From IMG/VR virus record IMGVR_UViG_3300000976_000008, positions 175,223 through 239,222 of that record: a DNA stretch of 64,000 nucleotides; one strand, 5' to 3'. Shown in pieces: positions 1,323 to 61,955 of this stretch. The notes under the pieces are model-generated. The model saw nothing but the letters and a program-made list of their open reading frames with translations. It was not told the origin of the DNA and did no database searches. How positions within the stretch are numbered: the stretch's first letter is position 1; the number at the start of each line of letters is the position of its first letter. The stretch is from a virus. Lineage: Duplodnaviria > Heunggongvirae > Uroviricota > Caudoviricetes. The translations under genes and the position numbers were made by a program.

Positions 1323-1349
1323 TGTTGCAAGTACAAATATATACATTAA
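1323..1349 (-). promoter_or_regulatory. Degenerate core promoter-like motif
   Basis: TGTTGCAA-N14-ATTAA, intergenic. Confidence 0.45.
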
Positions 1350-1411
1350 CTTTTGAACTCGCAATGCTCACCAATTAGTTCCCGATACGTTAGCCACTGT
1401 TTTTATTTTGG

Positions 1412-1840
1412 TCATTTAGTAAGCCTCAAGTGGCCATCGGGATTCACGCCACGCATCAAATATTCATGAAGCTCATCGAAAGAATTAGGATCATCCATAA
1501 TGAACGATTTTATTTCTTCAGCACTAGTTTCAAGCAAAGGATAGCCATACGCTTTAGCACAACAATTCAGAATCAACCCATTAGCACTCCTAGAAGTTAA
1601 ATCCATGGGCAGATCCCATTTATTCGATGGTAACCAATCGAACAATCTAACCTCACAACCTGATCGCTTTCCGATTATCTCGCATATTTCATAATACGCC
1701 ATATCTGTTATGAAACTAAGAGGAGCATTAGAAACCACATTACCATATAAATCAGTAATTGGTTTCTCATGGAATAAAGGATGGAAACCCTTTTCCACGA
1801 GGAATTCAAAGGTAGCCGCAATCATCAAACCGCCACGCAT
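1412..1840 (-). CDS. Family B-like protein, tandem paralog of 1840-2250
   Basis: Shared HPLFHE, YYEI/YFEI, CC and DDPNSF/ESPNSL motifs. Confidence 0.8.
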   Translation of the reverse strand: MRGGLMIAATFEFLVEKGFHPLFHEKPITDLYGNVVSNAPLSFITDMAYYEICEIIGKRSGCEVRLFDWLPSNKWDLPMDLTSRSANGLILNCCAKAYGYPLLETSAEEIKSFIMDDPNSFDELHEYLMRGVNPDGHLRLTK

Positions 1841-2250
1841 TATATTCCTCTGACTACATAAGTTTCAATCGCTTCGAGAGAGTTAGGGCTTTCAAAACTA
1901 AAAACTCTACTAGCATGAGGATCAAGACGTATTACAGGTCTCTTGAATTTTTTATAACAGCAGTCGCAGATCACATTATGAGAACTCCTGTGGCTGATCA
2001 TTGGTTGATCATGATCTTCAGCAGGAGTCCAAGGATGAAGCACTATCCGACAACCTCTAGAGCATTCATGGATCTCAAAGTACACCCACTTAGTGATCAG
2101 AGTAATAGGGGCAGTAGTAATAGGATTCCCCACATAATCATAAACCGCTTCTTCGTGGAATAGAGGATGTAAGTTAGCCTCCCTCAAATGCTCATATACC
2201 CCTCGAATAGCATCTCCCCGAGCTTCTACTTTGGCTCTCCTTCTACTCAT
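1840..2250 (-). CDS. Family B-like protein, tandem paralog of 1412-1840
   Basis: HPLFHE; FSFESPNSLEAIE. Confidence 0.8.
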   Translation of the reverse strand: MSRRRAKVEARGDAIRGVYEHLREANLHPLFHEEAVYDYVGNPITTAPITLITKWVYFEIHECSRGCRIVLHPWTPAEDHDQPMISHRSSHNVICDCCYKKFKRPVIRLDPHASRVFSFESPNSLEAIETYVVRGI

Positions 2251-2545
2251 GAATCAGATCGCCCTTGAGGTCGGCCAATCTAACATTAGCCCTTTTCATG
2301 GCCTTCCTCTTTTCTTCCGTGTACTGTTCCCTATAGCTTATATCAACAATCCATTTACCACCAGTTCGCCAGAATTTGGTACCACTACCCATAATGGAAT
2401 TTAGACGATATTCACGAGGAATTCGAGACTTCTGGGCACCTATAAAAGCATCTCTCCCTATCTCGACGGCACAGCCTTCATCAACCAGAATATCATAAAT
2501 CTGGTTCCCTAATTTCTCGTTAATTCGATTCTCAGCCATCGCCAC
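2243..2545 (-). CDS. Hypothetical protein
   Basis: ORF with GGAG RBS. Confidence 0.75.
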   Translation of the reverse strand: MAMAENRINEKLGNQIYDILVDEGCAVEIGRDAFIGAQKSRIPREYRLNSIMGSGTKFWRTGGKWIVDISYREQYTEEKRKAMKRANVRLADLKGDLIHE

Positions 2546-2587
2546 TCCAAATCAACCTTGGGTAAAAGTGTCTTGCGAACAACCATA

Positions 2588-8429: not shown

Positions 8430-8517
8430 GTTCTTCGTTCCTGAAAGTGGGGTTTTTTGAGTGAGGAGTCGTTTGGTCGTCCTCTCTCCCTTTTGTGTTG
8501 CGAGCGGGAGTGGCTCG

Positions 8518-8766
8518 TTAATTCCTAGCTGGCCAGGTGATTGTGATCGTCGAGCCTGCGGAGTGTTCGGTGTTGTCGTCGAAGGTGATGGAACCTTCTT
8601 CAGCTTCGAAGTTGTTGCAGAGGTTGTCTTCGAGTTCGGTGGTTTTTTCGCCTCCGTTGGCGATTTGGTCCCAGATCTGTGAAAGTGTGGCGTCGTCGGC
8701 TACTTCTTGAGCGTAGTTTTCTGTTTCGCCGGAGAAGTGGCCGGTATGTTCGACTTTGACTTGCAT
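8518..8766 (-). CDS. Cassette hypothetical protein (acidic)
   Basis: Start trimmed to ATG after repeat; TAA lies in GTTAA box. Confidence 0.8.
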   Translation of the reverse strand: MQVKVEHTGHFSGETENYAQEVADDATLSQIWDQIANGGEKTTELEDNLCNNFEAEEGSITFDDNTEHSAGSTITITWPARN

Positions 8767-8827
8767 CGTTGTTTCCGCGAGGAATTGGGGAATCGTCTGC
8801 CCTTCTGTTGCGAGCAGACGACTCCCG

Positions 8828-9031
8828 TTAATTCGGGAGTTCGTGGATGCTGTAGACGGTGTCGTTGCCAACGACCCAGAAGGCGGTGAGTGAGTGTTCG
8901 TTCAGTTCTTTGTATTCGGTGACTTCTTGTCCGGCTTCGTTGCGGATGAGGGTTTTGCAGCCTTCGAGGCTTCCTGATCCGAGGATTCGTGCTCCTTGGC
9001 CTGGCTTTTCGATGATGACGATGAGGTTCAT
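8828..9031 (-). CDS. Cassette hypothetical protein
   Basis: AGGA RBS; stop in GTTAA box. Confidence 0.8.
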   Translation of the reverse strand: MNLIVIIEKPGQGARILGSGSLEGCKTLIRNEAGQEVTEYKELNEHSLTAFWVVGNDTVYSIHELPN

Positions 9032-9103
9032 GTTTGTCCTTTTGTGGGAATTGCCTGCCCTTCTGTTGCGAGGGCAGGATTCCCGTTAATCTCGGTCAGG
9101 GGT

Positions 9104-9478
9104 CTATTCCTCTGTTGTCAGCAGGGTCGCTGCTTTCCGTGCTGCCTCTGGGTCTGCGAGGGGTATTCGCCATTCGTCGCCTTCGGGTGAGATTCCGAAG
9201 TATTCCTCGGTTTTCAGGTCCACCGCGAGCCATCCCCAAAAGTCCATGTCGGCATTTCCCCTGGTGAAGTATGGGTAGTTTGCCCAGACGATCGAGAGGG
9301 CGTTTTCTTTGGCGTCGTTGATGTCTGCCCCGATTTCGGCGATCCCTGTTGCCTCGATGTCTTCGAGAGCTTGGAGGGCCAGAGCGAGGGCTGGGTAGCT
9401 TGGTTGATCTTCGGCTCGCCAGTTTTTGGTTTGTTGGCCGTTGTCGTCTTTTCTGATCTTGGCGGTGCTTGTCTTCAT
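9104..9478 (-). CDS. Cassette hypothetical protein
   Basis: AGGAG RBS after repeat. Confidence 0.8.
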   Translation of the reverse strand: MKTSTAKIRKDDNGQQTKNWRAEDQPSYPALALALQALEDIEATGIAEIGADINDAKENALSIVWANYPYFTRGNADMDFWGWLAVDLKTEEYFGISPEGDEWRIPLADPEAARKAATLLTTEE

Positions 9479-9550
9479 TGCCGTGTCTCCTGAGGGATTG
9501 GGGGAATCGTCTGCCCCTCTGTTGCGAGCAGACGAACCCCGTTAATCTCG

Positions 9551-9811
9551 CTATTCCCAATTGACGGAGAGTGGCGTGTCGGTGGCCCAGGCGGTGAGTT
9601 GCACGCAATCTTCGGTAACCAAATCCTCTGGTTCTGTTGAGTCTTCTTTCTCGTAGTCGAACGCTGGATTTGGTCGAGAGTGGGGCAGTTCGCCAATTCT
9701 GACTTCGCCGACATCAGAATTAACGGAATCCCCACCTGCTTCTACTGTGAGGTAAACTGGAAGGTCAGGACCTTCGAGAAGCTCGGCGGCGAGTTGGTGT
9801 GCTGTTTTCAT
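9551..9811 (-). CDS. Cassette hypothetical protein
   Basis: GGAG RBS after repeat. Confidence 0.8.
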   Translation of the reverse strand: MKTAHQLAAELLEGPDLPVYLTVEAGGDSVNSDVGEVRIGELPHSRPNPAFDYEKEDSTEPEDLVTEDCVQLTAWATDTPLSVNWE

Positions 9812-9873
9812 TTTGGTCTCCGAGGATGGGAATCGTCTGCCCCTCTGTTGCGAGGGGCAGATTCCCGTTAACC

Positions 9874-10080
9874 TTAGTCTCGTGGGTCTCGGAAGGCTTC
9901 CGCGATGTCGTTGAGTTCTTGAGGTTCCAGGATTTGAGTGTTCTCTTCGACTTCTCTCGGTGTCGGCGAGGGGTCTTGGAGGCAGTAGCAGTAAGCGTCC
10001 CAGCGAGCTTGTTCCGGGTGGGTGGTAGTGTTTACCTTGATCAGTCGGTGTTGGTCGCCGTTTGTAACCAGGACGAGCAT
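9874..10080 (-). CDS. Cassette hypothetical protein
   Basis: AGGAG RBS after repeat. Confidence 0.8.
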   Translation of the reverse strand: MLVLVTNGDQHRLIKVNTTTHPEQARWDAYCYCLQDPSPTPREVEENTQILEPQELNDIAEAFRDPRD

Positions 10081-10148
10081 TTTTGAACTCCTGAGGAATT
10101 TGGGGGAATCGTCTACCCCTCTGTTGCGAGGGGCAGACTCCCGTTAAT

Positions 10149-10580
10149 TCACGGCCAGTATGGTTCAGGAGCCCGATGGGTTTGCTTCGATCGTTTCCTC
10201 ATTGCGGCGATCTTGGATTGTCGAGCAGCTTCGGAGCGTTCGATTTCGTCTCGGAGGACTTCTCGGAGTTTGCCACAGTGTTCCTGGAGTTGGTGGACTT
10301 GCATGGTTGTGGTCAGTCGAGCGTTGTTTAGCAAGATCTGGTGGACGTGGGTCATGAGACCGACTTGGTAGGTGATCTTGTGTTTATTGGTGTGGTTCGC
10401 GATATCGGAGAGGATGACGACGCAGGCCTGGCGGAGAACTGGTGAGAGTCCGAAGTTGACGACGTGATCGCCTTCGTCGACGAATTGGACGTTTTCGCGG
10501 ATGAGATCCTCGTGGATTTCATCGACTAGCTTGCCGAGTGCTGTGGCGAATTCCGACAAGTGGTTGAATCGAAGGTGCAT
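10149..10580 (-). CDS. Cassette hypothetical protein
   Basis: Start trimmed to MHLRF after CAGGA RBS. Confidence 0.8.
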   Translation of the reverse strand: MHLRFNHLSEFATALGKLVDEIHEDLIRENVQFVDEGDHVVNFGLSPVLRQACVVILSDIANHTNKHKITYQVGLMTHVHQILLNNARLTTTMQVHQLQEHCGKLREVLRDEIERSEAARQSKIAAMRKRSKQTHRAPEPYWP

Positions 10581-10661
10581 TGTTCGTTCCTGAAAAGTTG
10601 GGGGAATCGTCTGCCCTTTTGTTGCGAGCAGACGATCCCCGTAAACTCCACGATTCCCCAA

Positions 10662-10886
10662 TCAGGAGTTTGGATCGAGTCCGAACTGCTTGTTCACTGG
10701 GAACATGGTCCGGATTGCTTCAGCGAGTTCGAGAGCCTGTTCGCAGGAGATCGAGCCTGTGGGATTTGGAAGGCTGATCTGCAGGCGTTCACGGAATGAG
10801 GATTTGGGATCGACTGGTCCGGCATATCGGGTGAAGAGGATTCGACCGTCAATGGCGTCTTCGAATCTGGCGACTTCTGAACTCAT
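10662..10886 (-). CDS. Cassette hypothetical protein
   Basis: CAGGA RBS. Confidence 0.8.
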   Translation of the reverse strand: MSSEVARFEDAIDGRILFTRYAGPVDPKSSFRERLQISLPNPTGSISCEQALELAEAIRTMFPVNKQFGLDPNS

Positions 10887-10890
10887 GGCT

Positions 10891-11445
10891 TCATTCCTGA
10901 AGGAATTGGGGGAATCGTCTGCCCTTCTGTTGCGAAGAGCAGACTCCCGTTAACTCTCCGTCGTTCCACCAAGCGGCACCGTCATCACTGTACGCGTAGA
11001 CAACGATGTAGATTCGGTGTTCGTCTGGACCGTCGCCAGTGTTCAGGTCACGCACCCCAAGTTCTTCGGTGTCGAGGTTTTCTTCGTCGTTGGTGAGTGA
11101 GACCTCACCAGGCGTTCCAGTGTTTGGGTAAGCACCGGCTGCGTTCAACTTGTCTGCAAGAGTCATCTCTGTTTCTCCGAGGATGGTGGGAATCGTCTGC
11201 CCTTCTGTTGCGAAGAGCAGACTCCCGTTAACTCTCACGCGGAAGACCATCGCCATGTTCGCGTGCACAGTGCCTACCGAGACGGTCGTTTCTCCATCTC
11301 GGAATTTCGCTTCCAACTCGGTCGCTTCTCCATCCGAATCGGAGGTCTCGAAGACGAACGTCCCGCCTTGGAGGGAAGATCGGACTTCTGCCGTGAGGGC
11401 TTCTTGGATTGTCGTCTGGTCTGCCTGGGTGCCTGTGAAAGCCAT
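10891..11445 (-). CDS. Two cassette ORFs fused in frame through repeats (second start at 11166)
   Basis: Frame crosses repeats at 11206 and 10928. Confidence 0.7.
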   Translation of the reverse strand: MAFTGTQADQTTIQEALTAEVRSSLQGGTFVFETSDSDGEATELEAKFRDGETTVSVGTVHANMAMVFRVRVNGSLLFATEGQTIPTILGETEMTLADKLNAAGAYPNTGTPGEVSLTNDEENLDTEELGVRDLNTGDGPDEHRIYIVVYAYSDDGAAWWNDGELTGVCSSQQKGRRFPQFLQE

Positions 11446-11517
11446 GGTTCTGTTCCTGAAAGAATGGGGGAATCGTCTGCCCCTCTGTTGCGAGCAGACG
11501 ATTCCCGTTAATTCCGA

Positions 11518-11685
11518 CTAAATCGCGAAAACTTCGATTTCCGATGCCAGATGCGGGAGAACTTCTCCCTCAATCCAAGCCGCGTTAGAGTAATCGCCGA
11601 CGTCCATGCAGCCGTCAAGCTTCTCTGTCCACTCGTCCCAAAGAAGAAGGAGGTTAGTCGCTGAGAGAACTCGTGTCTCTGGCAT
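11518..11685 (-). CDS. Cassette hypothetical protein
   Basis: Trimmed start MPETR. Confidence 0.75.
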   Translation of the reverse strand: MPETRVLSATNLLLLWDEWTEKLDGCMDVGDYSNAAWIEGEVLPHLASEIEVFAI

Positions 11686-11752
11686 TTCGCTGTTCCTGAA
11701 GAGGTTGGGGAATCGTCTGCCCCTCTGTTGCGAGGGGCAGACTCCCGTTAAT

Positions 11753-12013
11753 TCACTCGATCCCATCCCAGGCTTTGGGCGTGCAGGTCGTGAGGATTGT
11801 CGCGTCGTTTCCTTCCAGGTCTTTCAGTCGGATCTCCCAGGAGTCTTCAGTGTAGGGGTCGTGAGCTGGCTCGGTTGCTTTTTTGTGCCATTCTTCGTTG
11901 GCCAGGATCCAGTTGGCAGCTTTCTGGAGAGCGAGTTGCGGGGTTTCGGCCTCCACAATCGTCAGGACTGTTGAATCAGTCGTCAGGCGGAGACTTGCGA
12001 TGATGTGTTGCAT
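11753..12013 (-). CDS. Cassette hypothetical protein
   Basis: GAGGA RBS. Confidence 0.8.
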   Translation of the reverse strand: MQHIIASLRLTTDSTVLTIVEAETPQLALQKAANWILANEEWHKKATEPAHDPYTEDSWEIRLKDLEGNDATILTTCTPKAWDGIE

Positions 12014-12084
12014 TTTTGGTCCTCAAGAGGTTGGGGAATCGTCTACCCTTCTGTTGCGGGCAGACGAACCCCGTTAATTCTCGA

Positions 12085-12342
12085 CTAGCTCACCAGGACG
12101 CGATTGCCGGATGCCGCCAGCATGAAGTTCCAGATGTACATCTGGAGTTTGGCGAGATTCCCGGCATGTCGAGCGAGTTCCTGGTCGAACTTGGCTCGAT
12201 TTGCTCTGGAGAATGCGGTGTCCTCGACGATCTCTTCGACTCGTTCGACGAGGGTCTGCGGGCATGTGATGGCCTGGAGTTCTGCCGAAGCTTCGTTGAG
12301 GGCTGAAGCTGGGTTTCCGGCGACTGCTGTGAGGTCTTGCAT
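12085..12342 (-). CDS. Cassette hypothetical protein
   Basis: Trimmed start MQDLT. Confidence 0.8.
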   Translation of the reverse strand: MQDLTAVAGNPASALNEASAELQAITCPQTLVERVEEIVEDTAFSRANRAKFDQELARHAGNLAKLQMYIWNFMLAASGNRVLVS

Positions 12343-12404
12343 CGTGCTGTTCCTGAAAGAGGGGGAAAATCGTCTGCTCTTCTGTTGCGAAGAGCAGATC
12401 TTCG

Positions 12405-12641
12405 TTAATCTCCGACCGACCACCAACCGCCACCCCGAAGCTCAAGATCCTCGTCGGAAATCTCGAAAGTAAGTGGACCATCCCAAGCAGTGAGGACTGC
12501 TTGTAGAAGGTTCGGATCGCCAGAGACGTCTGTCAACGAGCCATTAGCTCCGAAAGTCGCACTGTGCGTTTGGTCATCTCTTATGACCTCAACCCGATTT
12601 GTCGAATCTGCCACAGAAATCGTGACCGAACTAATCGCCAT
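12405..12641 (-). CDS. Cassette protein, paralog of N-terminus of 63241-63726
   Basis: Shared THSA...AVL.AW.GP..FEISDE.LE..GGGWWS; stop in GTTAA box. Confidence 0.85.
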   Translation of the reverse strand: MAISSVTISVADSTNRVEVIRDDQTHSATFGANGSLTDVSGDPNLLQAVLTAWDGPLTFEISDEDLELRGGGWWSVGD

Positions 12642-12709
12642 AGCTTCGTTCCTGAAAAGAAATGAGGAATCGTCTGCCCCTCTGTTACGAGCAGACGACC
12701 CCAGTAAAA

Positions 12710-12910
12710 TCAGGAGCCTTTGACCGGCTTGTCCATCACGCACCCGTCTGCGTCGTAGTAGCGGGTTCGTGAGAACCGGCCACCGCCTGCTCGATCACTG
12801 TGCGGGCTTTCGAGCTTGGCTTCGATGCACCGGACTCCGTGGATTGTGCGGATTCTTGCCGACTTGACTTCGCTGTCGGCTTTGAGGCGACGTAGGACTT
12901 CTTCGAGCAT
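12710..12910 (-). CDS. Cassette hypothetical protein
   Basis: Trimmed start MLEEV. Confidence 0.75.
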   Translation of the reverse strand: MLEEVLRRLKADSEVKSARIRTIHGVRCIEAKLESPHSDRAGGGRFSRTRYYDADGCVMDKPVKGS

Positions 12911-13007
12911 GGCTTCATTCCTGAAAGAGGGGATTTGTCTGCCCTTCTGTTGCGAAGGGCAGATCTTCGTTAACTCGTCTAGAACTCTTCGGACGAGGCG
13001 ATGAGTT

Positions 13008-13250
13008 CTAGTTTGAACGCGGTGATTCCGATCCCGCGAGTTGGTGCAATCTCTGAGAGCAGTAGAGTGCAGTATCCCGGTAATGGCCAGCTTTGGGATT
13101 TTCCGGCATGGCTTCGATTGCTGCCTTGCAATCGTCTCGGACGAATCGGAGCGACGATTCCGACATCCCCTTGACATGCTTCATGAGTGACTTGTGACAT
13201 GTGAGTCCTGTTTCTCGGCACCATCCTGTGTGATCGAAGTTGGTCGCCAT
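13008..13250 (-). CDS. Cassette hypothetical protein
   Basis: CAGGA RBS. Confidence 0.8.
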   Translation of the reverse strand: MATNFDHTGWCRETGLTCHKSLMKHVKGMSESSLRFVRDDCKAAIEAMPENPKAGHYRDTALYCSQRLHQLAGSESPRSN

Positions 13251-13319
13251 GTTTCTGTTCCTGAAGGAATGGGGGAATCGTCTGCCCCTCTGTTGCGAAG
13301 AGCAGACGTCCGTTAATTC

Positions 13320-13607
13320 CTACTCAACCTCCTCCAAGACCGGAATCGCCAAGAAGATATCGCCGACCATCTGACACTCTTCACTCTTTGCGTATTCCTT
13401 GTTCAGTGTCTCACCTTCGCCTGGGTGATTCACAACCACTAGGTAGGCGAACTTCTGACCAGGTACTGGCGTGTACTCTGTGATGCTGATCTTCCAGTGA
13501 TCGTGCACTGTCGTGTTGATTGTGTGGCAACCCACATTGCCATCGACTCGGAAGTAGTGGTCGAATCCGGTTGAAAGAGCCTCTGCAATGCCGTGCATCA
13601 TGATCAT
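13320..13607 (-). CDS. Cassette hypothetical protein
   Basis: CAGGA RBS. Confidence 0.8.
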   Translation of the reverse strand: MIMMHGIAEALSTGFDHYFRVDGNVGCHTINTTVHDHWKISITEYTPVPGQKFAYLVVVNHPGEGETLNKEYAKSEECQMVGDIFLAIPVLEEVE

Positions 13608-13671
13608 CGTTCCTGAAGGAATGGGGGAATCGTCTGCCCTTCTGTTGCGAAGAGCAGACGTCCGTTAATTC

Positions 13672-13926
13672 CTAGCGATCCCTCAACCATTGAAGCAAGC
13701 TCATCATCGCGAACAAATCGCTGAAGTTCTTCGCTGAAGGGATCGAGGCGAATGCCCGAGAATGGTACTCGAAGAGAATCTTTGTCCGTTCGAGATCGCC
13801 ATCAACCCGGTGCGAAAGCTCTTCGAGAATCGATTCGGCGATTTCGCCATCGCTCTCATCATCACACAAAGTTTGAAGAGTAGTTCCGAGGTTTGTGAGA
13901 CTGGACGTCTGATGTTGTCGCTGCAT
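13672..13926 (-). CDS. Cassette hypothetical protein
   Basis: CAGGA RBS. Confidence 0.8.
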   Translation of the reverse strand: MQRQHQTSSLTNLGTTLQTLCDDESDGEIAESILEELSHRVDGDLERTKILFEYHSRAFASIPSAKNFSDLFAMMSLLQWLRDR

Positions 13927-13998
13927 TTCGCTGTTCCTGAAGGAGTTGGGGGAATCGTCTGCCCCTCTGTTGCGAAGAGCAGACGCCCGTTAACTCGA

Positions 13999-14433
13999 CT
14001 AGCAGGGAGTGAAGCCTGGTGAATGGGTCTCGTCACCCGAAACAGGCTCGTCTTCTGGACGACCGTCCTCACCGATGCGGAACACCTTGCTTCGATAGAC
14101 TCCGAGCGGCGTTTCCAACTCGATGTCCTGAAGAGTAACCGACAGATTCGGGTCGAGGAATACGGTACTCTGCTTGTCGGCAGAACCGGGATCGTCGTTC
14201 TCAAAAAAGCATAGGAACGATAGAATCAGTTCGTCCTCTTCTTCTCCGTACCAACAGATCTTGAAGACCTGAGGCGTCACGAGCCGGAAGCGGTTGCCAG
14301 CTTCGTTGATCTCAACGATCTCTTGCTGTTCGAGATCGCGGGCATCTGGGGTTGCGTCTTCTCCCAGAATACCCCAATGGCCCCATCCAAGACGTCGGAG
14401 GTATCGGACAAGGCGTTCTTGATTCGGGTTCAT
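13999..14433 (-). CDS. Cassette hypothetical protein
   Basis: AGGA RBS. Confidence 0.8.
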   Translation of the reverse strand: MNPNQERLVRYLRRLGWGHWGILGEDATPDARDLEQQEIVEINEAGNRFRLVTPQVFKICWYGEEEDELILSFLCFFENDDPGSADKQSTVFLDPNLSVTLQDIELETPLGVYRSKVFRIGEDGRPEDEPVSGDETHSPGFTPC

Positions 14434-14500
14434 GGTAGGTTCCTAAAAATGAGTGAGGGGATCGTCTACCCACGTGTTGCGAGCAGAGATCCCCCGTTAA

Positions 14501-14835
14501 ACAAGGCGGTTGAGTTCACGACTGGTGCCGTATTTCTTTCGTCTTCCGAGAGCTTTTTCCGGACGAAGAATCTTTTCCGCAGTCCCTGAGGATCTGGGTG
14601 GGATGGCCGATAGCGAATCGCTTCCAGTCCCCAATTCTTCGTTCTGGTGGCAGTTCCGTCTCCGATAGAGTGACCGTTAGCTGCGTGAAAGTCTAGGCTC
14701 TTGTTTCCTCAATCAGGCCAGGTCAAGCCTAGCGGTGGTAGTAACTCATCGTTTGTCTCCCTGCTAGAATGTGAACGGCGGAGCAAAAATCGTGAATCGC
14801 GGACGTCTAAAAAAGGAACAGCGTTAGCTCTTCAT
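14501..14835 (-). pseudogene. Cassette without an intact ORF
   Basis: ATG after RBS stops after 3 codons (MKS*); bounded by repeats. Confidence 0.4.
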
Positions 14836-14932
14836 CGTGATCTCCCTGAAACTTGGAATTGTCTTCTCTTGACTGTTGCGAGGACGGGATGGCGGTTAAT
14901 TCCGCCACCCCAAATCCCCAGGGTGTTGAGTC

Positions 14933-15154
14933 CTAGCTGTCGCTGTCGACTTCTTCGGCAGGAGCGTTGGCGGCGGCGATCAAGTTGCCAGCTTCCTTCT
15001 CATCCACCTTCGCACCAGCGGCGACGATCTTGGCTCCCAATGAACGGATTTCCATCCCGACGAGAGTTCGTGCCTCATTTTCGGTGCAATTGGTCTGAGC
15101 CATGATTGCTTTGACGAGAGACTGAGTGAGGGCGGCGAGTTGCTTCTTGTTCAT
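14933..15154 (-). CDS. Cassette protein, MNKKQL family copy 2
   Basis: Paralogy. Confidence 0.9.
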   Translation of the reverse strand: MNKKQLAALTQSLVKAIMAQTNCTENEARTLVGMEIRSLGAKIVAAGAKVDEKEAGNLIAAANAPAEEVDSDS

Positions 15155-15272
15155 CGTGTCATGTTCCTGAAAGTGGGTTGAGTTGTGTGTGCGATTTCCG
15201 GCTTGGAAATCGGGAGGGGAATCGTCTCCCCTCCCTTCTGTGTTGCGAGCCAGCATGGCCCGTTAATTCCGA

Positions 15273-15488
15273 CTAGTTGGCGTCAGCTTCGGCAGGAGCG
15301 TTGGCAGTGGCGATCAGCTTGGTGGCTTCGTCTTCGGTCACCTTCGCACCAGCGGCGACGATCTTGGCACCAAATGAACGGATTTCCATACCAACCAGAG
15401 TCCGAGCTTCGTTCTCGGTGCAGTTGGTCTGAGCCATGATTGCTTTGACGAGAGACTGAGTCAGAGCAGCGAGTTGTTTCTTGTTCAT
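15273..15488 (-). CDS. Cassette protein, MNKKQL family copy 3
   Basis: Paralogy. Confidence 0.9.
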   Translation of the reverse strand: MNKKQLAALTQSLVKAIMAQTNCTENEARTLVGMEIRSFGAKIVAAGAKVTEDEATKLIATANAPAEADAN

Positions 15489-15580
15489 CGTGTCACGTGT
15501 TCCTGAAAAGGGGGTTTGATTTTGGGACCGAATTGTCCCGTCTTCTCTTTAGTGTTGCGAGCCGAAATGGCCCGTTAACT

Positions 15581-15841
15581 TCAAGCAGCGGCCACCAACC
15601 GAAAACCGATCGGAGCAGCCAGGTTGATCGCACTGAGCGACCGTGCAGTTTTAGGGCAGCAAACAACCTCTGTGTCGCTAACCCCAAAAATCGCCGAATA
15701 AACGGAAAAATCCCCGCAATCCGCACGAACAGCATTCCTCAAGTAAACCGTAGCCTCTTTGACGCACTCGCAGCGTTCCGTATTCGTGAACGTCTTGGAG
15801 TGAAAACGACCGTAAGCAATGAAGCTGATTTCGAGGACCAT
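15581..15841 (-). CDS. Cassette hypothetical protein
   Basis: Fills inter-repeat interval. Confidence 0.7.
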   Translation of the reverse strand: MVLEISFIAYGRFHSKTFTNTERCECVKEATVYLRNAVRADCGDFSVYSAIFGVSDTEVVCCPKTARSLSAINLAAPIGFRLVAAA

Positions 15842-15910
15842 TGTCTCAATCCTGAGTTGGGGGGAAGCGTCTGCCCTTCTGTTGCGAAGAGCAGACCCCC
15901 GTTAACTCGA

Positions 15911-16279
15911 CTAATCCCAGGAAACGACCAACTCACGCCAGCGAGTTCGAGCCAACACGTCCGGATCGTTCATCGTGTCTTTGGGAACGACTCGATACGT
16001 GACTCCCTCACGAGAGAGCCATTCGAGAATCTCGCCATGAACCGAAATCGGCTTCGCAGCATCCTCTTCGTCGATCTTCCCAAGCGAGACAGATCGGGCA
16101 CCCTCTGAAGATGCCGCAACGGCCATCAGGTTAAGGACACGTTCCTGTTCCCGCTCAAAAGCCGGTTGAATCAGAAGAGTCTGCTTCTCGATATCCGCTT
16201 CCTGTGCGGCTTCGATCCGGTCACGAGCAGTCTTTGACAGCACTCGAAGTCGATCGGCAAGAAGGTCTTTGTCAGCCAT
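15911..16279 (-). CDS. Cassette hypothetical protein
   Basis: CAGGA RBS. Confidence 0.8.
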   Translation of the reverse strand: MADKDLLADRLRVLSKTARDRIEAAQEADIEKQTLLIQPAFEREQERVLNLMAVAASSEGARSVSLGKIDEEDAAKPISVHGEILEWLSREGVTYRVVPKDTMNDPDVLARTRWRELVVSWD

Positions 16280-16350
16280 GTCTCTGTTCCTGAAAAAGGG
16301 GAAGAAGCGTCTGCCCTTCTGTTGCGAGCTGCAGACGCCCGTTAACTCGA

Positions 16351-16581
16351 CTAATCAGCATCCACGTTCAGCAACCGAACAGAATCAAGAGTCTGGATCT
16401 CCATCTCCCTGAAAAAGAGATTGGAAGCGTCGCAATCGTCTTCTGAAGTCGGACCTTGACCATCGCAATCGTTATCGACACGCATCTGTTGCCGAATCTC
16501 CGGGCTAATCTCGCCTTCGATCACTGCGGCGAACGTGTCAGCAGACTTGCCATCGTATTTGGTGATTAGGGTAACCAGCAT
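16351..16581 (-). CDS. Cassette hypothetical protein
   Basis: AAGGAG RBS. Confidence 0.8.
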   Translation of the reverse strand: MLVTLITKYDGKSADTFAAVIEGEISPEIRQQMRVDNDCDGQGPTSEDDCDASNLFFREMEIQTLDSVRLLNVDAD

Positions 16582-16638
16582 TCTCTGTCTCCTTAGAAGG
16601 GAATCGTCTGCCCTTCTGTTGCGAGCTACAGACGCCCG

Positions 16639-16791
16639 TTAATCCTCGATCTTCGACATGAGGAACTCGCGAACCTCATCCTCATCGAAGCCCTTCGGCA
16701 TCGCCGTAGCGATGTAGGTCTCGACCTGGTGCGAATCCTCTGGTGGGAATCCACCCGTCCACCGTTTGAAATCACGCAAAATCGAGTCCAT
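16639..16791 (-). CDS. 50-aa cassette protein (below ORF-track cutoff)
   Basis: MDSILRDFKRWTGG...; TAATG coupling; stop in GTTAA box. Confidence 0.7.
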   Translation of the reverse strand: MDSILRDFKRWTGGFPPEDSHQVETYIATAMPKGFDEDEVREFLMSKIED

Positions 16792-17066
16792 TAGCTCACT
16801 TTCTTATCTCGAAACTCGACAAACTCGACGAACTCCTGCAGATCCCTCTCAAGATCCATCAGATCGCCATCAGTGTACGCTGTATCATCATCGATAAGCA
16901 GTAAATCGATCTCAGACTCGTTCGAGATCCTAGCTCGCTCACCAATCCTACGGACAATCCCCGCCAACTCCTCTGGCGTGCCATCCAGCTTCTCAATCTC
17001 CGAATCTGGGAAATCCCAGTAAATCGTGTCGTTCGATTCGATGCTGATGATCATGGATCGCCTCAT
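16791..17066 (-). CDS. Cassette hypothetical protein (acidic)
   Basis: ORF; start may be 17054. Confidence 0.75.
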   Translation of the reverse strand: MRRSMIISIESNDTIYWDFPDSEIEKLDGTPEELAGIVRRIGERARISNESEIDLLLIDDDTAYTDGDLMDLERDLQEFVEFVEFRDKKVS

Positions 17067-17118
17067 TGGGGGAATCGTCTGCCCCTCTGTTGCGAAGGGC
17101 AGACACCCGTTAACCCGA

Positions 17119-17316
17119 CTACTCTGTCAGGAACCTGTACGTCGTCTCAGTGATCGGCTCCGAACGCCAATCACAACCAATAATGATCCCGCGTTCACGG
17201 CACTCGGCCATCACGATCTCTTCCTCGCTCCAAGTATCCGGAACAATCACCGGCATCCTCACAACGCCATTTCGCATCATCGCGGTAATCACAACGTGTC
17301 GGTCTCGTTCTCGCAT
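17119..17316 (-). CDS. Cassette hypothetical protein
   Basis: AGGAG RBS, MRERD. Confidence 0.75.
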   Translation of the reverse strand: MRERDRHVVITAMMRNGVVRMPVIVPDTWSEEEIVMAECRERGIIIGCDWRSEPITETTYRFLTE

Positions 17317-17921
17317 CACTCGCTCCTGTTGGGGGAATCGTCTACCCCTCTGTTGCGAAGGACAGACGCCCACTCTTCAAAACCCTCTTCGAAGTTGTCG
17401 AAATCGAGAAAGAGTTCGTCGAGCGTCATATCGACCATAGTGACTGACTTGCAGGGTTTCCCCTCGTCGTCTCCATAGTCGACTTGTGTAGTGAACCAGT
17501 CCCACGTCACGACCTGGTCTTTGGTTTCTAGCCACTTAGCTTTGAACAACCGACAAAAGTCCACAGTAGTCACATACCACTTGTCTCGACAGTTCCAATC
17601 GTTCAAATGGATGAGTATCTTGTCCACGTTCGTCTCCTGTTGGGGGAATCGTCTACCCCTCTGTTGCGAAGGACAGACGCCCAGCCTCTCCCAGAACGAA
17701 GTCGGTCGTTTCTTCAAATCTGACCAGATCTCGGCATTCACTCGACGAGCAATCGACTCAAAGATCGGACCGAAAACCATCGCCGCGTCCCACTTCAAAG
17801 AATCCGCCTTCTCTTTAGCGATCGCCAGACGAGACTCGAACTCCTCATCGCCCAGGCGTTCCCGATCGTCCGCTTCTCGCTGTTCGGCTTCACTCTTCGA
17901 CTCAATCGTCCATTCTGCCAT
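17316..17921 (-). CDS. Two cassette ORFs fused through truncated repeats (second start GTG 17627)
   Basis: Frame crosses repeats at 17662 and 17351. Confidence 0.7.
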   Translation of the reverse strand: MAEWTIESKSEAEQREADDRERLGDEEFESRLAIAKEKADSLKWDAAMVFGPIFESIARRVNAEIWSDLKKRPTSFWERLGVCPSQQRGRRFPQQETNVDKILIHLNDWNCRDKWYVTTVDFCRLFKAKWLETKDQVVTWDWFTTQVDYGDDEGKPCKSVTMVDMTLDELFLDFDNFEEGFEEWASVLRNRGVDDSPNRSE

Positions 17922-17997
17922 CGTTTCGTCTCCTGCGGGTTGGGGAATCGTCTGCCCCTCTGTTGCGAGCAAACCTCCAACGTTAACCCAACACCAC

Positions 17998-18046: not shown

Positions 18047-18050
18047 CGAA

Positions 18051-18076
18051 TTAACGGACGATTCTCAACCGCAACA
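18051..18076 (+). promoter_or_regulatory. Inverted copy of the core motif preceding a plus-strand gene
   Basis: TTAAC-N13-CCGCAACA, 38 bp upstream of ATG 18114. Confidence 0.8.
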
Positions 18077-18113
18077 GGAAAGCATCGAGATTCCCAAGAA
18101 CACGGAGAAAACG

Positions 18114-19111: not shown

Positions 19112-19223
19112 ACGCTCGATTTCCTGCTTGGAAAAAGGATTGGGGGAATTGTACCCTATTGTTGCAGAGGAATACTCCCCGTTAAATGCACCCCACACGC
19201 CCGATTTCCTGCCTAGAAATCTC

Positions 19224-24258: not shown

Positions 24259-24488
24259 TTGCCGTAGTGTTCGTTGATTCCACCAATGAAGAATTGGTGG
24301 AATCCGATGAGTCCGAGGATGCCCATTGTTGTTCGGAGGAATATGGCGAGTCCTCGTGTTGGTTCGCCGTTTAGCCAGAAGAGACTGAGCAGGAATATGA
24401 GGATTATTGTTCCTGCTGTTATGAGGTAGTTTTTAGTGCTGGCTTTGAGGGGTTTTCTTTTCTTGTTTTTCATGGGGGTTTGTTGCAA
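24255..24488 (-). CDS. Small membrane protein (2 TM)
   Basis: Hydrophobic segments; start probably MKNKK. Confidence 0.7.
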   Translation of the reverse strand: MQQTPMKNKKRKPLKASTKNYLITAGTIILIFLLSLFWLNGEPTRGLAIFLRTTMGILGLIGFHQFFIGGINEHYGK

Positions 24489-24504
24489 GGGAATTATTGT
24501 TTGT

Positions 24505-27759: not shown

Positions 27760-27786
27760 TGTTGCAAAGAGATATATGTGCGTTAA
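27760..27786 (-). promoter_or_regulatory. Core promoter-like motif
   Basis: TGTTGCAA-N14-GTTAA. Confidence 0.6.
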
Positions 27787-53680: not shown

Positions 53681-53707
53681 TGTTGCGGGCAAAGATTCCC
53701 TAGTTAA
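53681..53707 (-). promoter_or_regulatory. Core motif copy
   Basis: TGTTGCGG-N14-GTTAA. Confidence 0.7.
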
Positions 53708-55048: not shown

Positions 55049-55098
55049 GTCGTCTCCAAGATTGTTGTTTCGGAGGACCAAATTCCCCCATATTATCC

Positions 55099-55124
55099 TG
55101 TTGCGAGAAAATATAGTATGTTAA
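55099..55124 (-). promoter_or_regulatory. Core motif copy
   Basis: TGTTGCGA-N13-GTTAA. Confidence 0.75.
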
Positions 55125-57082: not shown

Positions 57083-57135
57083 AATTACCTCTGTGCTAGG
57101 TGTTCAGGAGGGGCTGTCGTCCCCTCATACCTCCT

Positions 57136-57161
57136 TGTTGCGAACATATGGGATGGGTTAA
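57136..57161 (-). promoter_or_regulatory. Core motif copy
   Basis: TGTTGCGA-N13-GTTAA. Confidence 0.75.
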
Positions 57162-59243: not shown

Positions 59244-59271
59244 CAAAATCCTCTGCCTATATGTTGCGAGC

Positions 59272-59493
59272 CTAAGTAATATCGTTAACTGTGTATTTGG
59301 GATTGCCAAGCTTGATTTTAGCGTGCCATGCTTTCATCCACACTTGATTACCAGCTTTCAAGAAAGCGATTGCTTTATCCCTGCGAGCAGAAGGTTCACA
59401 ACTCTGTAAGAAATAGAGGGTGTCTGAATAATCATTGAAGTAATCAAAATTCTCCAACAATTTGAAATCACTCAAAACTGCTCGGACAATCAC
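59272..59493 (-). CDS. Hypothetical protein
   Basis: ORF. Confidence 0.7.
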   Translation of the reverse strand: MIVRAVLSDFKLLENFDYFNDYSDTLYFLQSCEPSARRDKAIAFLKAGNQVWMKAWHAKIKLGNPKYTVNDIT

Positions 59494-59921
59494 TTGTCGC
59501 TCCCCGACAAGTCGTCAGCGATCATCGTAATATGATCCATGAATGCGAGAGCAGAAATATCGCCAGGTAGTCGTGGCATGTCTTCGTCAAGATAAGCCAA
59601 GGCAATCGCAGTAGTTCCGCCTTTGATTTCGGGATCACTCTCTATCGCGTCAAAGGCTCGCCTCCAGCCATCCACTTTAGAGCGAATCCATGCAACTGTG
59701 ATTTCATTCAGTTCTCTTGCTCTAGAAGGGCTGTAAACTGGATGACGCTTGTTGAAATCCCTCAGACGGTCTGGGATATCATCCTGATCGATTCCCACTT
59801 CCAACGTAGCCCCATCGGATCGTTGGAACGTGACGAGATCAGGATTGATGCTGACCGCAGTCCACTGTGGTGTGATCTCTTCACAAAATCGATTTGCTCT
59901 ATTTTGCAACACTTCGTTCAT
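59490..59921 (-). CDS. Hypothetical protein
   Basis: ORF. Confidence 0.75.
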   Translation of the reverse strand: MNEVLQNRANRFCEEITPQWTAVSINPDLVTFQRSDGATLEVGIDQDDIPDRLRDFNKRHPVYSPSRARELNEITVAWIRSKVDGWRRAFDAIESDPEIKGGTTAIALAYLDEDMPRLPGDISALAFMDHITMIADDLSGSDK

Positions 59922-60292
59922 TTCGAATCTCTCACGTACAAGACCATATCACGAGCAGTCGTGTGGTCACCATGTGGTTTGGTCATCTCTCTGATCATTT
60001 CATCAAAATTCTGTCTGTGATTAACTCTTGTGTTCCGTTTTTCTCTTTTAGAGAAGGCTCTCACAATCGCCTCAACGATATAGATCCTATCACCGTGTAA
60101 GACCTTCCCAGGTCCCCACCATTTTCCAATCATCTGGTATTCGGTCAATACGACAATATCGCTATCTGGATCATCAAGACATCTACTATTGAGAGTCATC
60201 TCATAATTAGAGATCCCATTTGATGCACCGGTTCGAACATTCTCGATTAGGCACATCAAATAGGAAGCAGCCTTAGCCATTATTTCCAGCAC
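59918..60292 (-). CDS. Family A-like protein
   Basis: CLDDPD..VLHGDRIYIV. Confidence 0.7.
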   Translation of the reverse strand: MLEIMAKAASYLMCLIENVRTGASNGISNYEMTLNSRCLDDPDSDIVVLTEYQMIGKWWGPGKVLHGDRIYIVEAIVRAFSKREKRNTRVNHRQNFDEMIREMTKPHGDHTTARDMVLYVRDSK

Positions 60293-61812
60293 CAGTTGAA
60301 GTCTTTACGGCGATCAAGGACCTTAGAGAGCATGTCGGTCAACTTTCCGGCATACTCTTCGTCGTGGATATCGTAACCGAGACCGTGGACGAATTCGTGG
60401 AGTGCGAGAGAAAGCATTCGATTCCGGTCAGTTAGCTTGAACCTCTTCTTCCAAGACTTGCTGTAAGTCCCTCTCTGTTCAACCACTTCCGCCGCAGCAA
60501 GGTAATAGATCTTCCCATAGTCCCCTTCCTCATATTCGGCCACAGTATCATCGGAGAAGATGAATCCAATAGCGAATGAGGCTTCATGTTCGAACGTGCG
60601 GTGCAGTTGGAGCATAAGACGCCCCCAAATCCTCGCTAGTTTCTTGCTGTAAGTTGAGAATTCTTCACTGTCCGGTTTGTAGTATTCCGGAACGACAAGA
60701 TCCGTTTCGTTCTTGATGACGAATTCTTCGTTGATCGCAACATCGACGTACTCTACATGTGGTGCAGAACCATGAGACGGTGCTTTTGCTGATGGTCGAG
60801 TAAGAGTGGCTACACTCTCCCCATTTTCAGCATGACCTCCATCGTACCCACCTTGAACAATTGACGTCAGTATTGGACGTTCTGCAATGATTGTTTCACC
60901 GTCTGTTGCATCAGAATCAGGAACAGTTGCTGTAGTCGTAGCAGTATTCCCCATGATGGTACTAGTAGTAGCTGATACCTTCGAATGAGATATTTTCTGA
61001 CCAGCATAGTGAATGTACCGTTCCTGTCGAGGCTTCAAAGCCGAACGCTTGTCAACTGAGATTTCAGTAACGAACGTTGACAATTCTTGGCGGTATTGCC
61101 AAGCGAGACCGTCACGATTTGCTGTCAGAACATCGATGGAAGCACCATCCAATTCGAGGACGACGCATCGATCAAGACCACAACTTTGGATGAACATCGG
61201 TTGACCATTGATGCGAACAACCAGTTTGTATTCTGTGGATTTGTTCGTATAAACCTGGCCGAACCCAAGGTGTCGTCGTGGAGTTCCCTTACGCATGTTT
61301 GCGTAACATTCTTCCCCATTGTACGAGAAGACACCCTTCCACTGTGCGTAAAAGCAAAACTCGTTGAATTGATGCTTCAGAGAGCTACGAACATCGCCTT
61401 TCATGACGACTGTTGTCTTTGTGCCATCGAGAAATTCGGCGTGTTCGTCAAGTTCGTAACTTCCGCCAGAGCCTTCCGCGACGTAATTGGCTGTGTGAAC
61501 ACGCCATGATAGATGCGTGAACAGAAGCAATTCTTTGGCTTTTCCGAAACCGCCGACCGAACCTTCACAGTTCTTGCCAGAAGAACCAAGTGATAGTAAC
61601 TTGTTGACGAGGATATCGCGAGTCATTGGCGATCCATCATTCGTCACTTCTACGAGCGTGTTTCCTTGATCGTTCAAGGATACCACGTAATCGATGCTCC
61701 CGGAACCGGCGTCCATCGAGTTCTGATTAATTTCGCGAATCCACGCCCACTGCCAGTTGTTGTAATCGTTGATTGCTTTGGAAAAGAACTCGGGACCAAT
61801 TGCGACCTGCAT
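60280..61812 (-). CDS. GHKL (HATPase/Hsp90-like) ATPase with C-terminal HExxH motif
   Basis: REINQNSMDA, NDGSPM, GGFGKAK, GTK; LHEFVH..HD. Confidence 0.85.
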   Translation of the reverse strand: MQVAIGPEFFSKAINDYNNWQWAWIREINQNSMDAGSGSIDYVVSLNDQGNTLVEVTNDGSPMTRDILVNKLLSLGSSGKNCEGSVGGFGKAKELLLFTHLSWRVHTANYVAEGSGGSYELDEHAEFLDGTKTTVVMKGDVRSSLKHQFNEFCFYAQWKGVFSYNGEECYANMRKGTPRRHLGFGQVYTNKSTEYKLVVRINGQPMFIQSCGLDRCVVLELDGASIDVLTANRDGLAWQYRQELSTFVTEISVDKRSALKPRQERYIHYAGQKISHSKVSATTSTIMGNTATTTATVPDSDATDGETIIAERPILTSIVQGGYDGGHAENGESVATLTRPSAKAPSHGSAPHVEYVDVAINEEFVIKNETDLVVPEYYKPDSEEFSTYSKKLARIWGRLMLQLHRTFEHEASFAIGFIFSDDTVAEYEEGDYGKIYYLAAAEVVEQRGTYSKSWKKRFKLTDRNRMLSLALHEFVHGLGYDIHDEEYAGKLTDMLSKVLDRRKDFNWCWK

Positions 61813-61928
61813 GGCAAACTCCTGGGGATAGAGGAGAGACTATCGAGCATTGGCTGATGTTACCACTTCAGTGACTCGATTGCGGGTGCTGAGCAACTTA
61901 ATTGCACCCTATCTCTCTGACCCTATTA

Positions 61929-61955
61929 TGTTGCGAATTACCCTGTATTAGTTAA
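61929..61955 (-). promoter_or_regulatory. Core motif copy
   Basis: TGTTGCGA-N14-GTTAA. Confidence 0.75.

Follow-up and report, generated by a model that had tools for sequence, protein, structure and literature searches.

Phages that redirect the host core RNA polymerase with sigma factors of their own include SPO1 (gp28 and gp33/34), T4 (gp55) and phiEco32 (gp36), while the virion polymerase of N4 uses promoters with required hairpins (stems of 5-7 bp, loops of 3 nt). The "group 2" jumbo phages carry sigma factors and no polymerase (PMC7824862). In AR9, the non-virion polymerase (gp226 with split beta/beta' subunits) recognises uracil-containing DNA by its template strand, at promoters with AACA at -11 to -8, N6 and TA at -1/+1, a -35 box being unnecessary (PMC9209446). 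On the bacterial side, the consensus of Caulobacter RpoD is TTGaCgS / GCtANAWC (PMC8144410). For huge phages that have not been cultured, sequence is nearly the only source of knowledge, and little is understood of their gene control. In one of them (G000, 408 kb) and in its uncultured relatives a bipartite motif was distinguished which, judged from sequence, is likely to be the main non-late promoter class.

In the window (the whole stretch of 64,000 nt analysed, part of G000), TTAAC-N13/14-TCGCAACA is matched exactly 32 times, each time on the minus strand, and never in 100 shuffled sequences, which confirms the bipartite motif proposed in the first-pass annotation. In its relaxed form (TTAAC-N13/14-TYGCAACA, at most one mismatch) the motif is found 49 times in the window, of which the array zone (8.2-18.1 kb) accounts for 27 and the remainder of the window for 22, and the earlier estimate of about 54 is about right when copies with two mismatches are included. 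The whole genome (408,349 bp) carries 75 relaxed copies (68 minus, 7 plus), against one for the reversed-pattern control. The spacer is 13 or 14 nt long in every copy, with no copies at 12 or 15. As had been claimed, the copies lie upstream of starts in gene orientation: 57 of the 75 fall between genes, where 8 would be expected, 50 have a same-strand start 10-70 nt downstream (5.2 expected) and, with a second criterion and inspection by eye added, about 66 precede a same-strand gene start or tRNA; plus-strand copies likewise face plus-strand genes. The motif was absent from 80 unrelated phage sigma loci (0.9 Mb searched), and no other recurrent bipartite motif was found in the upstream regions.

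The array itself (8496..17986, minus strand) comprises 27 copies with at most one mismatch, a promoter-like repeat placed between small ORFs, such that the preceding ORF ends 5-8 nt ahead of a copy and the following start codon comes about 34-41 nt after it. Back to back with its last copy lies a one-mismatch copy on the plus strand (CCGCAACA, 18051..18076), facing the plus-strand start at 18115, and between the two are 4.5 copies of a 10-bp repeat, CAAGACTTCT. All other window copies described here are on the minus strand. They include (i) an N14 copy with TTAAT (one mismatch; 1323..1349), 32 nt before a start codon; (ii) a copy CTGCAACA (19160..19185) upstream of a 248-aa gene whose G001 orthologue also has the motif; (iii) three copies upstream of small ORFs, with the outer stem partly kept (20243-20268, 20604-20629 and 20857-20883); (iv) three copies followed by a start codon after 34-38 nt (34395-34420, 35360-35385 and 35939-35964), in which the outer stem GGGGAAT/ATTCCCC is retained, with the compensatory change GGAGAAT/ATTCTCC; (v) four copies at 38031-38056, 38480-38505, 38970-38995 and 39707-39733 (N14); (vi) one-mismatch copies at 40872-40897 (TCGTAACA), 41899-41924 (TCGCAATA) and 42345-42370 (TTGTAACA); (vii) an N14 copy CCGCAACA (53681..53707), 43 nt before a start codon; and (viii) an exact N14 copy (59262..59288), with a start codon 18 nt on. 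Of the 18 coordinates outside the array given previously, 17 hold at no more than one mismatch, while the copy at 38970 has two (CTGTAACA), yet is followed by a Shine-Dalgarno site and an ATG. The copies at 18051 (plus strand), 19160, 20243, 20604 and 20857 were not in that list.

Counting from ACA, a pyrimidine-purine step is conserved at one offset alone, +7/+8: 40 of the 48 non-array copies and 23 of the 27 array copies have it, as do 81 of the 99 copies from 13 metagenome loci. We read this step as the start site, since start codons fall on it and tRNA 5' ends and 5' hairpins follow it. An ATG opening an ORF of at least 40 aa lies exactly on the purine in 11 cases, compared with no more than 3 for each other offset from 0 to 15; leaderless mRNAs are accordingly predicted for the copy at 24481..24507 (ATG at 24473) and for the exact N14 copy at 27760..27786 (131-aa ORF, ATG at 27752), both on the minus strand. 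The 5' end of a G000 tRNA lies 12 nt after ACA, an arrangement repeated in L294, so that tRNA 5' ends are found 4-5 nt past the predicted start, and 5' hairpins begin 2-4 nt past it. The purine 8 nt after ACA is therefore probably the transcription start, as far as sequence can indicate, and the full form of the promoter would be (ga)TT(A/T)AC - N13/14 - nnG-N-N-ACA - N6 - Y-R.

In the four related viral contigs (G001-G004) orthologous genes (helicase, GHKL, DUF932 and others) are preceded by both boxes at the same spacing, with diverged spacer sequences, and the same holds upstream of orthologous genes in the 13 metagenome loci (105.6 kb), where 94 sense and 5 antisense copies were counted (reversed control, 9). 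The GC content of the relatives keeping the boxes ranges from 40 to 64%. The DUF932-like gene has its copy at a distance of 50 nt upstream (55099..55124, minus strand), and the motif or a lineage variant of it accompanies the orthologues in G001, G002, G004 and the 13 metagenome loci. At the SF2 helicase, whose copy lies 53 nt upstream (57136..57161, minus strand), both boxes are kept in G001 with a diverged spacer, and the helicase leader has a conserved stem-loop beginning 2-3 nt past the predicted +1. The exact N14 copy located 116 nt upstream of the GHKL-like 510-aa gene (61929..61955, minus strand) corresponds to TTTAC-N14-TCGCAACA upstream of the G001 orthologue. The second box varies by lineage (GCAACA, GTCACA/GTAACA, GCTACA/GTTACA, GCCACA), and its third, -12-equivalent base is A or C in most lineages and differs between related phages. 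Position, orientation, fixed spacing, conservation at orthologues and three indirect start-site markers together support the promoter reading.

The motif had been described as non-sigma70, a label its layout contradicts: with TTAACN as the putative -35 hexamer and NACANN, preceded by a conserved G, as the putative -10 hexamer, the arithmetic of the motif gives a sigma-70-type spacing of 16 bp (N13) or 17 bp (N14), and the pyrimidine-purine step falls where a start would be expected. A or T is found at the third -35 position, never G. A canonical -10 (TAnnnT) is not present, the -10 hexamer in most lineages having no T at its first or last position, (A/C/T)ACAnn. An ECF promoter was considered separately: the AAC core is present, while neither a CGT-type -10 nor a two-domain ECF sigma (regions 2 + 4_2, about 200 aa) was found. 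The earlier proposal of an ECF-like sigma also disagrees with the sole small sigma of the phage, which is RpoD-like and 290 aa long, and with the CG of TCGCA, which is unconserved (TTGC or CTGC stands there in relatives and in many G000 copies).

A genome search for sigma and polymerase genes, as had been suggested, returned the former and not the latter. No T7-like enzyme, beta/beta' domain or DFDGD was detected in the genome, which speaks against a promoter for a phage RNA polymerase. The single-subunit polymerase profile PF00940 gave no match, in a search whose controls were also silent; PF00623 and PF00562 gave none, with controls positive in 14 of 14 genomes; and the DFDGD catalytic motif was absent from every G000 reading frame. 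The 2912-aa protein had no virion-polymerase PHROG match, and the scanned large proteins (Pfam or PHROGs) showed tail-related, Ig-like or vWA matches only, or nothing informative. With no phage polymerase recognised, transcription is proposed to be carried out by the host core RNA polymerase, and the motif is probably read by a sigma factor that the phage itself encodes, to go by the sequences. The 290-aa protein, the sole recognisable small sigma, contains Sigma70_r2 and Sigma70_r4, has RpoD-like models as its best matches and keeps the canonical -35-reading helix (RERIRQ), whereas W433, W434, Q437 and T440 of the -10-reading region are lost. The comparison of sigma with box covers two genomes, G000 and G003: RERIRQ is found in both sigmas, region 2.3/2.4 differs from the canonical one and between the two, and both genes are located in motif-headed operons. 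Favouring G at the third -35 position is a property of R588 of E. coli sigma-70, and its equivalent is present in both small sigmas, which counts against their reading A or T there. The 290-aa sigma may be named as the reader tentatively, at somewhat less than an even chance, and the divergent 639-aa sigma is a less likely candidate. Were the 290-aa sigma the reader, and a motif promoter the sole source of its own mRNA, the cycle would have to be set going by other means.

The alternative which survives best, although we consider it doubtful, is a phage early promoter read by the host primary sigma, perhaps with a phage co-factor, the boxes being the host's consensus (e.g., alphaproteobacterial). 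The genome has no separate canonical promoter class able to start infection, TTGACA/TATAAT not being in excess in upstream regions (21 sense, 17 antisense, 23.5 in shuffles). T4 early promoters systematically replace the third -35 base (GTTTAC), and host sigma-70 still reads them. The motif fits the Caulobacter RpoD consensus TTGaCgS / GCtANAWC at 6/7 and 5/6 positions (PMC8144410). However, the optimal TTGAC is essentially unused (one of the 75 copies, intragenic), and the -12-equivalent base is mostly A or C where primary sigmas prefer T, and it varies between related phages. Region 2.4 of primary sigmas is, to our knowledge, nearly invariant throughout bacteria, and the phage sigma has its nearest homologues outside the alphaproteobacteria.

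It is improbable that TTAAC is instead the site of a host or phage transcription factor (CtrA-like or OmpR-like), with only the second box as core promoter. TTAAC is a half-site of CtrA-type regulators and the inter-box distance is fixed, but there is no partner TTAA 7 nt upstream and no CCAT extension in the flank, and for a lone 5-bp box at exactly -35 with a 16/17-bp spacer, contact with sigma region 4 is the simpler explanation. In a comparison with the CtrA-type site itself (TTAA-N7-TTAAC or half-site TTAACCAT), nothing conserved was seen 11 nt upstream, and the bases following TTAAC are GG in G000 and variable in other genomes.

Most array copies sit inside an inverted repeat of 12-13 pairs with a 6-9 nt loop, CGCAACA(GA). 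A sense-favoured hairpin would hold the promoter, with its 5' arm between the boxes, the second box in the loop and the 3' arm covering about -7 to +9. We give very little credence to the view that the element acts mainly at the RNA level, as a leader or intercistronic stem-loop (processing site, terminator/stabiliser or translational operator). It draws on the second box of the array lying in the loop of a strong hairpin, on the better folding of the sense strand (-24.0 vs -20.0 kcal/mol for antisense; better in 18 of 23 copies, worse in 2), on 31 G-T wobble pairs in the array stems and on compensatory changes in the arms. Yet the stem spanning the box is kept in roughly a third of the 48 non-array copies, which bears out the earlier remark on loss of the hairpin from most copies beyond the array, and the majority of copies in relatives are hairpin-free while retaining the boxes, exact spacing and Y-R step. 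Moreover, start codons follow at anything from 7 to more than 100 nt, one copy stands 12 nt before a tRNA, no T run follows the stem, and in an Rfam scan of the window the sole match above the gathering score was one tRNA, with no family matching the hairpin. The hairpin is an add-on of one motif subclass, dispensable for the core motif. Its sense-favoured arms include sequence upstream of the predicted start, so it cannot form in the RNA of the same promoter; most likely it acts on the read-through RNA of the upstream cassette (as a 3'-end/stability structure) or modulates promoter opening.

An equally remote reading takes the repeats for attC-like recombination sites assembling a cassette array, with an incidental promoter look: short cassettes, about 27 in number, make up the array and have imperfect hairpins as their boundaries, but the same boxes without hairpins precede single-copy orthologous genes and tRNAs across the lineage, and the Y-R step and the start codons at +1 are left unexplained. 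Recombination between repeated promoters could nevertheless have built the array. Hardest to credit is the promoter of a phage-encoded RNA polymerase (T7-like, N4-like or phiKZ/AR9-like split multisubunit), for which the hairpin promoters of N4 offer a precedent, though those are required and have 3-nt loops. The G000 form AACA-N6-TA has the exact geometry of the AR9 non-virion polymerase promoter, but a -35 box is absent from AR9 promoters and the first A of AACA is replaced in the relatives (PMC9209446).

Returning to the preferred reading, a phage sigma acting on host core polymerase, the clade may, though we consider it unlikely, use an orthogonal sigma/promoter pair of RpoD-type origin with a fixed -35 and a co-evolving -10 and region 2.4. 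TTAAC would then be read by the RERIRQ helix, and GCAACA, GCCACA, GTCACA and GCTACA would track the rebuilt region 2.4; within the array, one stretch of 50 bp would double as the 3' hairpin of an mRNA and as promoter for the one that follows or, alternatively, an extruded hairpin would present the -10 box as single-stranded DNA. With the motif, transcription can be mapped and start sites predicted for about 75 units here and many more in relatives, and the block of small unknown genes, the suppressor tRNA and the helicase/GHKL/DUF932 group are marked out as a single class under common control. Paired with candidate phage sigmas, it is testable in vitro without host culture, and if the pairing is true it would provide a natural set of orthogonal sigma/promoter variants in which promoter and sigma evolve together.

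Like SPO1, T4, phiEco32 and the group 2 phages, this phage encodes sigma-70-family proteins and no polymerase of its own, and has one sharp consensus, absent from unrelated phages, before a large gene block; unlike in those systems, the boxes match none of their consensuses, the factor is a candidate only, the -35 half is near-normal while the -10 half drifts between related phages, and one subclass of copies is embedded in a hairpin. With alphaproteobacterial primary-sigma promoters it shares a TTnACGG -35, a GCnAnA -10, the lack of T at -7 and an equivalent spacing, and differs from Caulobacter RpoD in the third base of each box (A/T, never G, in the -35; A or C in most lineages in the -10). 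As in AR9/phiKZ-type late promoters, AACA-N6-TA of G000 is identical and the start is predicted at A, whereas none of the AR9 polymerase proteins is detectable here and the -35-like box is obligatory. As in N4, the array promoter core lies in an inverted repeat able to extrude the recognition sequence as single-stranded DNA, in contrast to N4 with a 12-13-pair stem and a 6-9 nt loop, with no N4-like polymerase found, and with most copies hairpin-free.

The bipartite motif TTAAC-N13/14-TYGCAACA, composed of a -35-like first box and a -10-like second box, was found in its strict form 32 times in the window, always on the minus strand, and in none of 100 shuffles, which bears out the recurrent motif reported by the first-pass annotation. 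With up to one mismatch, 49 copies were identified in the window, 27 of them in the array (8496-17986, minus strand) and 22 outside it, and 75 in the whole genome (G000), where the reversed pattern gave a single match. The spacer of the genomic copies is 13 or 14 nt long, never 12 or 15. The copies are concentrated at approximately 169-302 kb of the genome, with lone gene-facing ones at 33, 41, 128 and 359 kb. Their placement is not random: 57 of the 75 are intergenic (8 expected), 50 are followed by a same-strand start within 10-70 nt (5.2 expected, based on rough gene calls) and, by a second criterion combined with inspection by eye, approximately 66 lie ahead of a same-strand start or a tRNA. 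Start codons most commonly follow ACA at 34-41 nt, within a total range of 7 to over 100 nt. A collection-wide scan for TTAACG-N12-TCGCAACA gave, among the matches listed, never more than one per contig, and we take these as chance.

The motif extends further than described in the first-pass annotation, up to a pyrimidine-purine (Y-R) step, mostly TA or CA, located exactly 6 nt past ACA in 40 of the 48 non-array and 23 of the 27 array copies; neighbouring offsets show no comparable step. We strongly infer promoter function and a transcription start at the purine of this step. Three independent features (ATG positions, tRNA 5' ends and leader stem-loops) place the start there. Counting ORFs of 40 codons or more in all genomes studied, the ATG coincides exactly with this purine in 11 cases, and no other offset between 0 and 15 yields more than three. 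Such ATGs, lacking a Shine-Dalgarno site, are found at window positions 24473 (copy 24481) and 27752 (copy 27760), elsewhere in G000 at 277014, 280950 and 251643, and in the related viral contigs G001 (133471) and G002 (161284 and 169208). Genes of this type are probably expressed from leaderless mRNAs, in a phage otherwise using strong Shine-Dalgarno sites. In G000, one motif copy stops 12 nt short of the mature 5' terminus of an opal-suppressor tRNA, and the same arrangement precedes another tRNA in a related locus (L294). In several leaders, e.g. that of the helicase gene, a stem-loop opens 2-4 nt after the Y-R step. An alternative reading, in which the TA located 6 nt after ACA begins a TAnnnT -10 box, was rejected, as the start would then fall inside tRNAs and leaderless ORFs.

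Several further elements accompany the motif. In G000 287439-287650 (outside the window) it is placed between two tRNAs with UCA anticodons (opal suppressors), which gives the second tRNA a promoter of this class to itself; the region upstream of the first one is different. About a dozen leaders of G000, G001 and locus L290 carry a stem-loop with the conserved loop (A/G)CGACAG, e.g. GGGGACGACAGCCCC, including those at window positions 57100-57130 (helicase), G001 139389 and 141023, and L290 7986, 9661 and 14736; this structure, which begins 2-4 nt past the predicted start, may stabilise the 5' end or bind a protein. The first transcribed bases of the array repeats, TAG(A/G)C(A/G)ATTCC(C/G)CC, are kept in loci L288, L289, L290 and L293 even where the spacer is non-pairing, which suggests a leader element independent of the hairpin. 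The array edge (window 17961-18115) resembles a divergent control region: the final minus-strand promoter of the array and a plus-strand copy facing an ATG at 18115 point away from each other, and between them lie 4.5 units of a 10-bp repeat, CAAGACTTCT, each unit equal to one helical turn.

The window covers bases 175,223-239,222 of a single 408,349-bp IMG/VR genome (rated complete by CheckV; GC content 43%). The gene products of this genome include a two-part DnaE-like polymerase, a helicase resembling DnaB, SbcCD-like nucleases and tail proteins, and it also carries many tRNAs. Megablast of 9 kb of G000 found no match in cultured phages, and the phage relatives of the DnaE-like polymerase are distant only. 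Searches that used the two motif-linked proteins, helicase and DUF932-like, as queries identified four related viral contigs, G001-G004 (146-275 kb, 41-70% complete), and 13 metagenome loci (105.6 kb in total), some of them marine; a helicase alignment search found no further close relative. G001 is syntenic with G000 across 81-242 kb, with 45-80% protein identity. The orthologues of the helicase, GHKL-like, DUF932-like and several further genes are preceded by both boxes at the conserved spacing and by the Y-R step, with spacers that differ in sequence. In the metagenome loci, 94 copies are on the gene strand and five on the other one (reversed control, nine), and 81 of these 99 have the Y-R step. 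Across relatives, which span 40-64% GC, the first box invariably reads TTAAC or TTTAC, and the preferred second box varies by lineage: GCAACA in G000, G001, G004 and L290, GTCACA or GTAACA in G002, GCTACA or GTTACA in G003, and GCCACA in most metagenome loci. An alignment-based sigma scan retrieved 80 unrelated phage sigma-encoding loci (0.9 Mb) with no motif copy, and therefore the motif family is specific to this clade. The element is strongly inferred to be a real promoter class conserved across the clade. Upstream of the DUF932-like gene, tandem motif pairs 71-77 nt apart are conserved in loci L287 and L291-L296 (e.g. L291 6146 and 6223); the first copy of each pair would yield only a short hairpin RNA (ACCGGC...GCCGGT).

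Nearly all genes of the window are small and encoded on the minus strand. The array-bearing region of small ORFs occupies approximately 56 kb in G000 (172-228 kb), whereas its syntenic counterpart in G001 (125-137 kb) extends over approximately 12 kb; the cassette array has expanded recently and in a lineage-specific manner. In the array hairpins (predicted stability of -19 to -30 kcal/mol), the spacer forms the 5' arm, the loop contains the second box, and positions from approximately -7 to +9 make up the 3' arm. As initially proposed, the hairpin is mostly lost outside the array: a stem spanning the box is present in roughly a third of the 48 copies, often reduced to the outer GGGGAAT/ATTCCCC pairs. 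Many relatives carry the motif without any stem, which makes the hairpin an add-on to the core promoter. The mean fold energy is -24.0 kcal/mol for the sense and -20.0 kcal/mol for the antisense strand (sense better in 18 of 23 cases, worse in two), and the array stems contain 31 G-T wobble pairs. The predicted start falls downstream of the 5' arm, so a transcript initiated at the same promoter is unable to form the hairpin; it can be formed by read-through RNA of the previous cassette, and also by the non-template DNA strand. We favour a dual use, in which the hairpin would form the 3'-terminal structure of the mRNA from one cassette and the underlying DNA would serve as the promoter of the next. 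No T run follows the array stems and no Rfam family matches the hairpin. A speculative alternative is an extruded loop presenting the -10 box as single-stranded DNA.

With TTAACN as the -35 and NACANN as the -10 hexamer, the spacer is 16 or 17 bp and the predicted start is the sixth base past the -10 hexamer. This is a sigma-70-family layout, so the earlier label "non-sigma70" is not the best description, although the sequence itself differs from TTGACA/TATAAT. A sigma-54 reading was rejected (no GG 10 nt upstream of GC). In G000 upstream regions, canonical TTGACA-N17-TATAAT shows no excess (21 sense, 17 antisense, 23.5 in shuffles), and the remaining upstream regions contain no second bipartite motif. 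Only one further signal recurs, the single box CAAAnnTA, with 58 of 186 copies at most 80 nt upstream of same-strand starts. GTATTTGA, considered as a second promoter class, was rejected as weak in G000 (seven of 26 copies upstream of genes). The form GTATTTGA(GG) precedes several motif-headed genes by 60-120 nt in G001 (helicase, DUF932-like and g157306) and G004, is found once in G000 (359139, before the sigma operon), and also lies at approximately 5880 of locus L157.

The promoter class is probably tied to phage-encoded sigma factors. A 290-aa phage protein contains sigma regions 2 and 4, with RpoD-type models as best matches; a search of 5.8 billion proteins yielded no close relative (best identity 36%), and a single-sequence scan of viral contigs found none. 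By elimination, the only bipartite class pairs best with this only sigma having both DNA-reading regions. Its alignment with primary sigmas shows that the -35-recognition helix RERIRQ is kept and that V, A, R and R replace W433, W434, Q437 and T440 (E. coli sigma-70 numbering). A 240-aa sigma of G003 has the same helix and another replacement set (T, Q, G, Y), and both genes lie in motif-headed operons (G000 359,078; G003 16,353). In these two genomes, the sigma half that is conserved would pair with the conserved promoter half, and the two variable halves with each other. Two points count against the 290-aa protein: its retained R588 equivalent should favour G at the third -35 base, where the motif has A or T, and a sigma made solely from its own promoter would need another starter. 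The start of the cycle could be supplied by an injected second candidate, a very divergent 639-aa sigma-like protein with homologues in G004 and G003, or by weak recognition by the host sigma. Among the candidate readers of the motif, we give the 290-aa sigma the greatest weight, still below even odds, ahead of the host primary sigma and then the 639-aa protein. The DUF932-like gene (window 53768-55081) has a paralogue heading the 290-aa sigma operon (G000 357853-359016), and in G003 the sigma and DUF932-like genes are approximately 9 kb apart; this association may be meaningful. A phage RNA polymerase, also proposed at first, is not borne out: the genome check revealed the two sigma candidates and no T7-like polymerase, beta/beta' domain or DFDGD loop, and the large proteins scanned (Pfam or PHROGs) gave only tail-related, Ig-like, vWA or no informative matches.

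Among known systems, the second half of the motif in G000 coincides with the promoter of the AR9 non-virion polymerase, AACA-N6-TA (PMC9209446); unlike in AR9, the genes of such an enzyme were not found in G000, and relatives alter the first A of AACA. The motif also agrees at 6/7 and 5/6 positions with the Caulobacter RpoD consensus TTGaCgS / GCtANAWC (PMC8144410). The literature searched contains no description of the present consensus. The element has a known architecture and a new consensus, part of which drifts by lineage.
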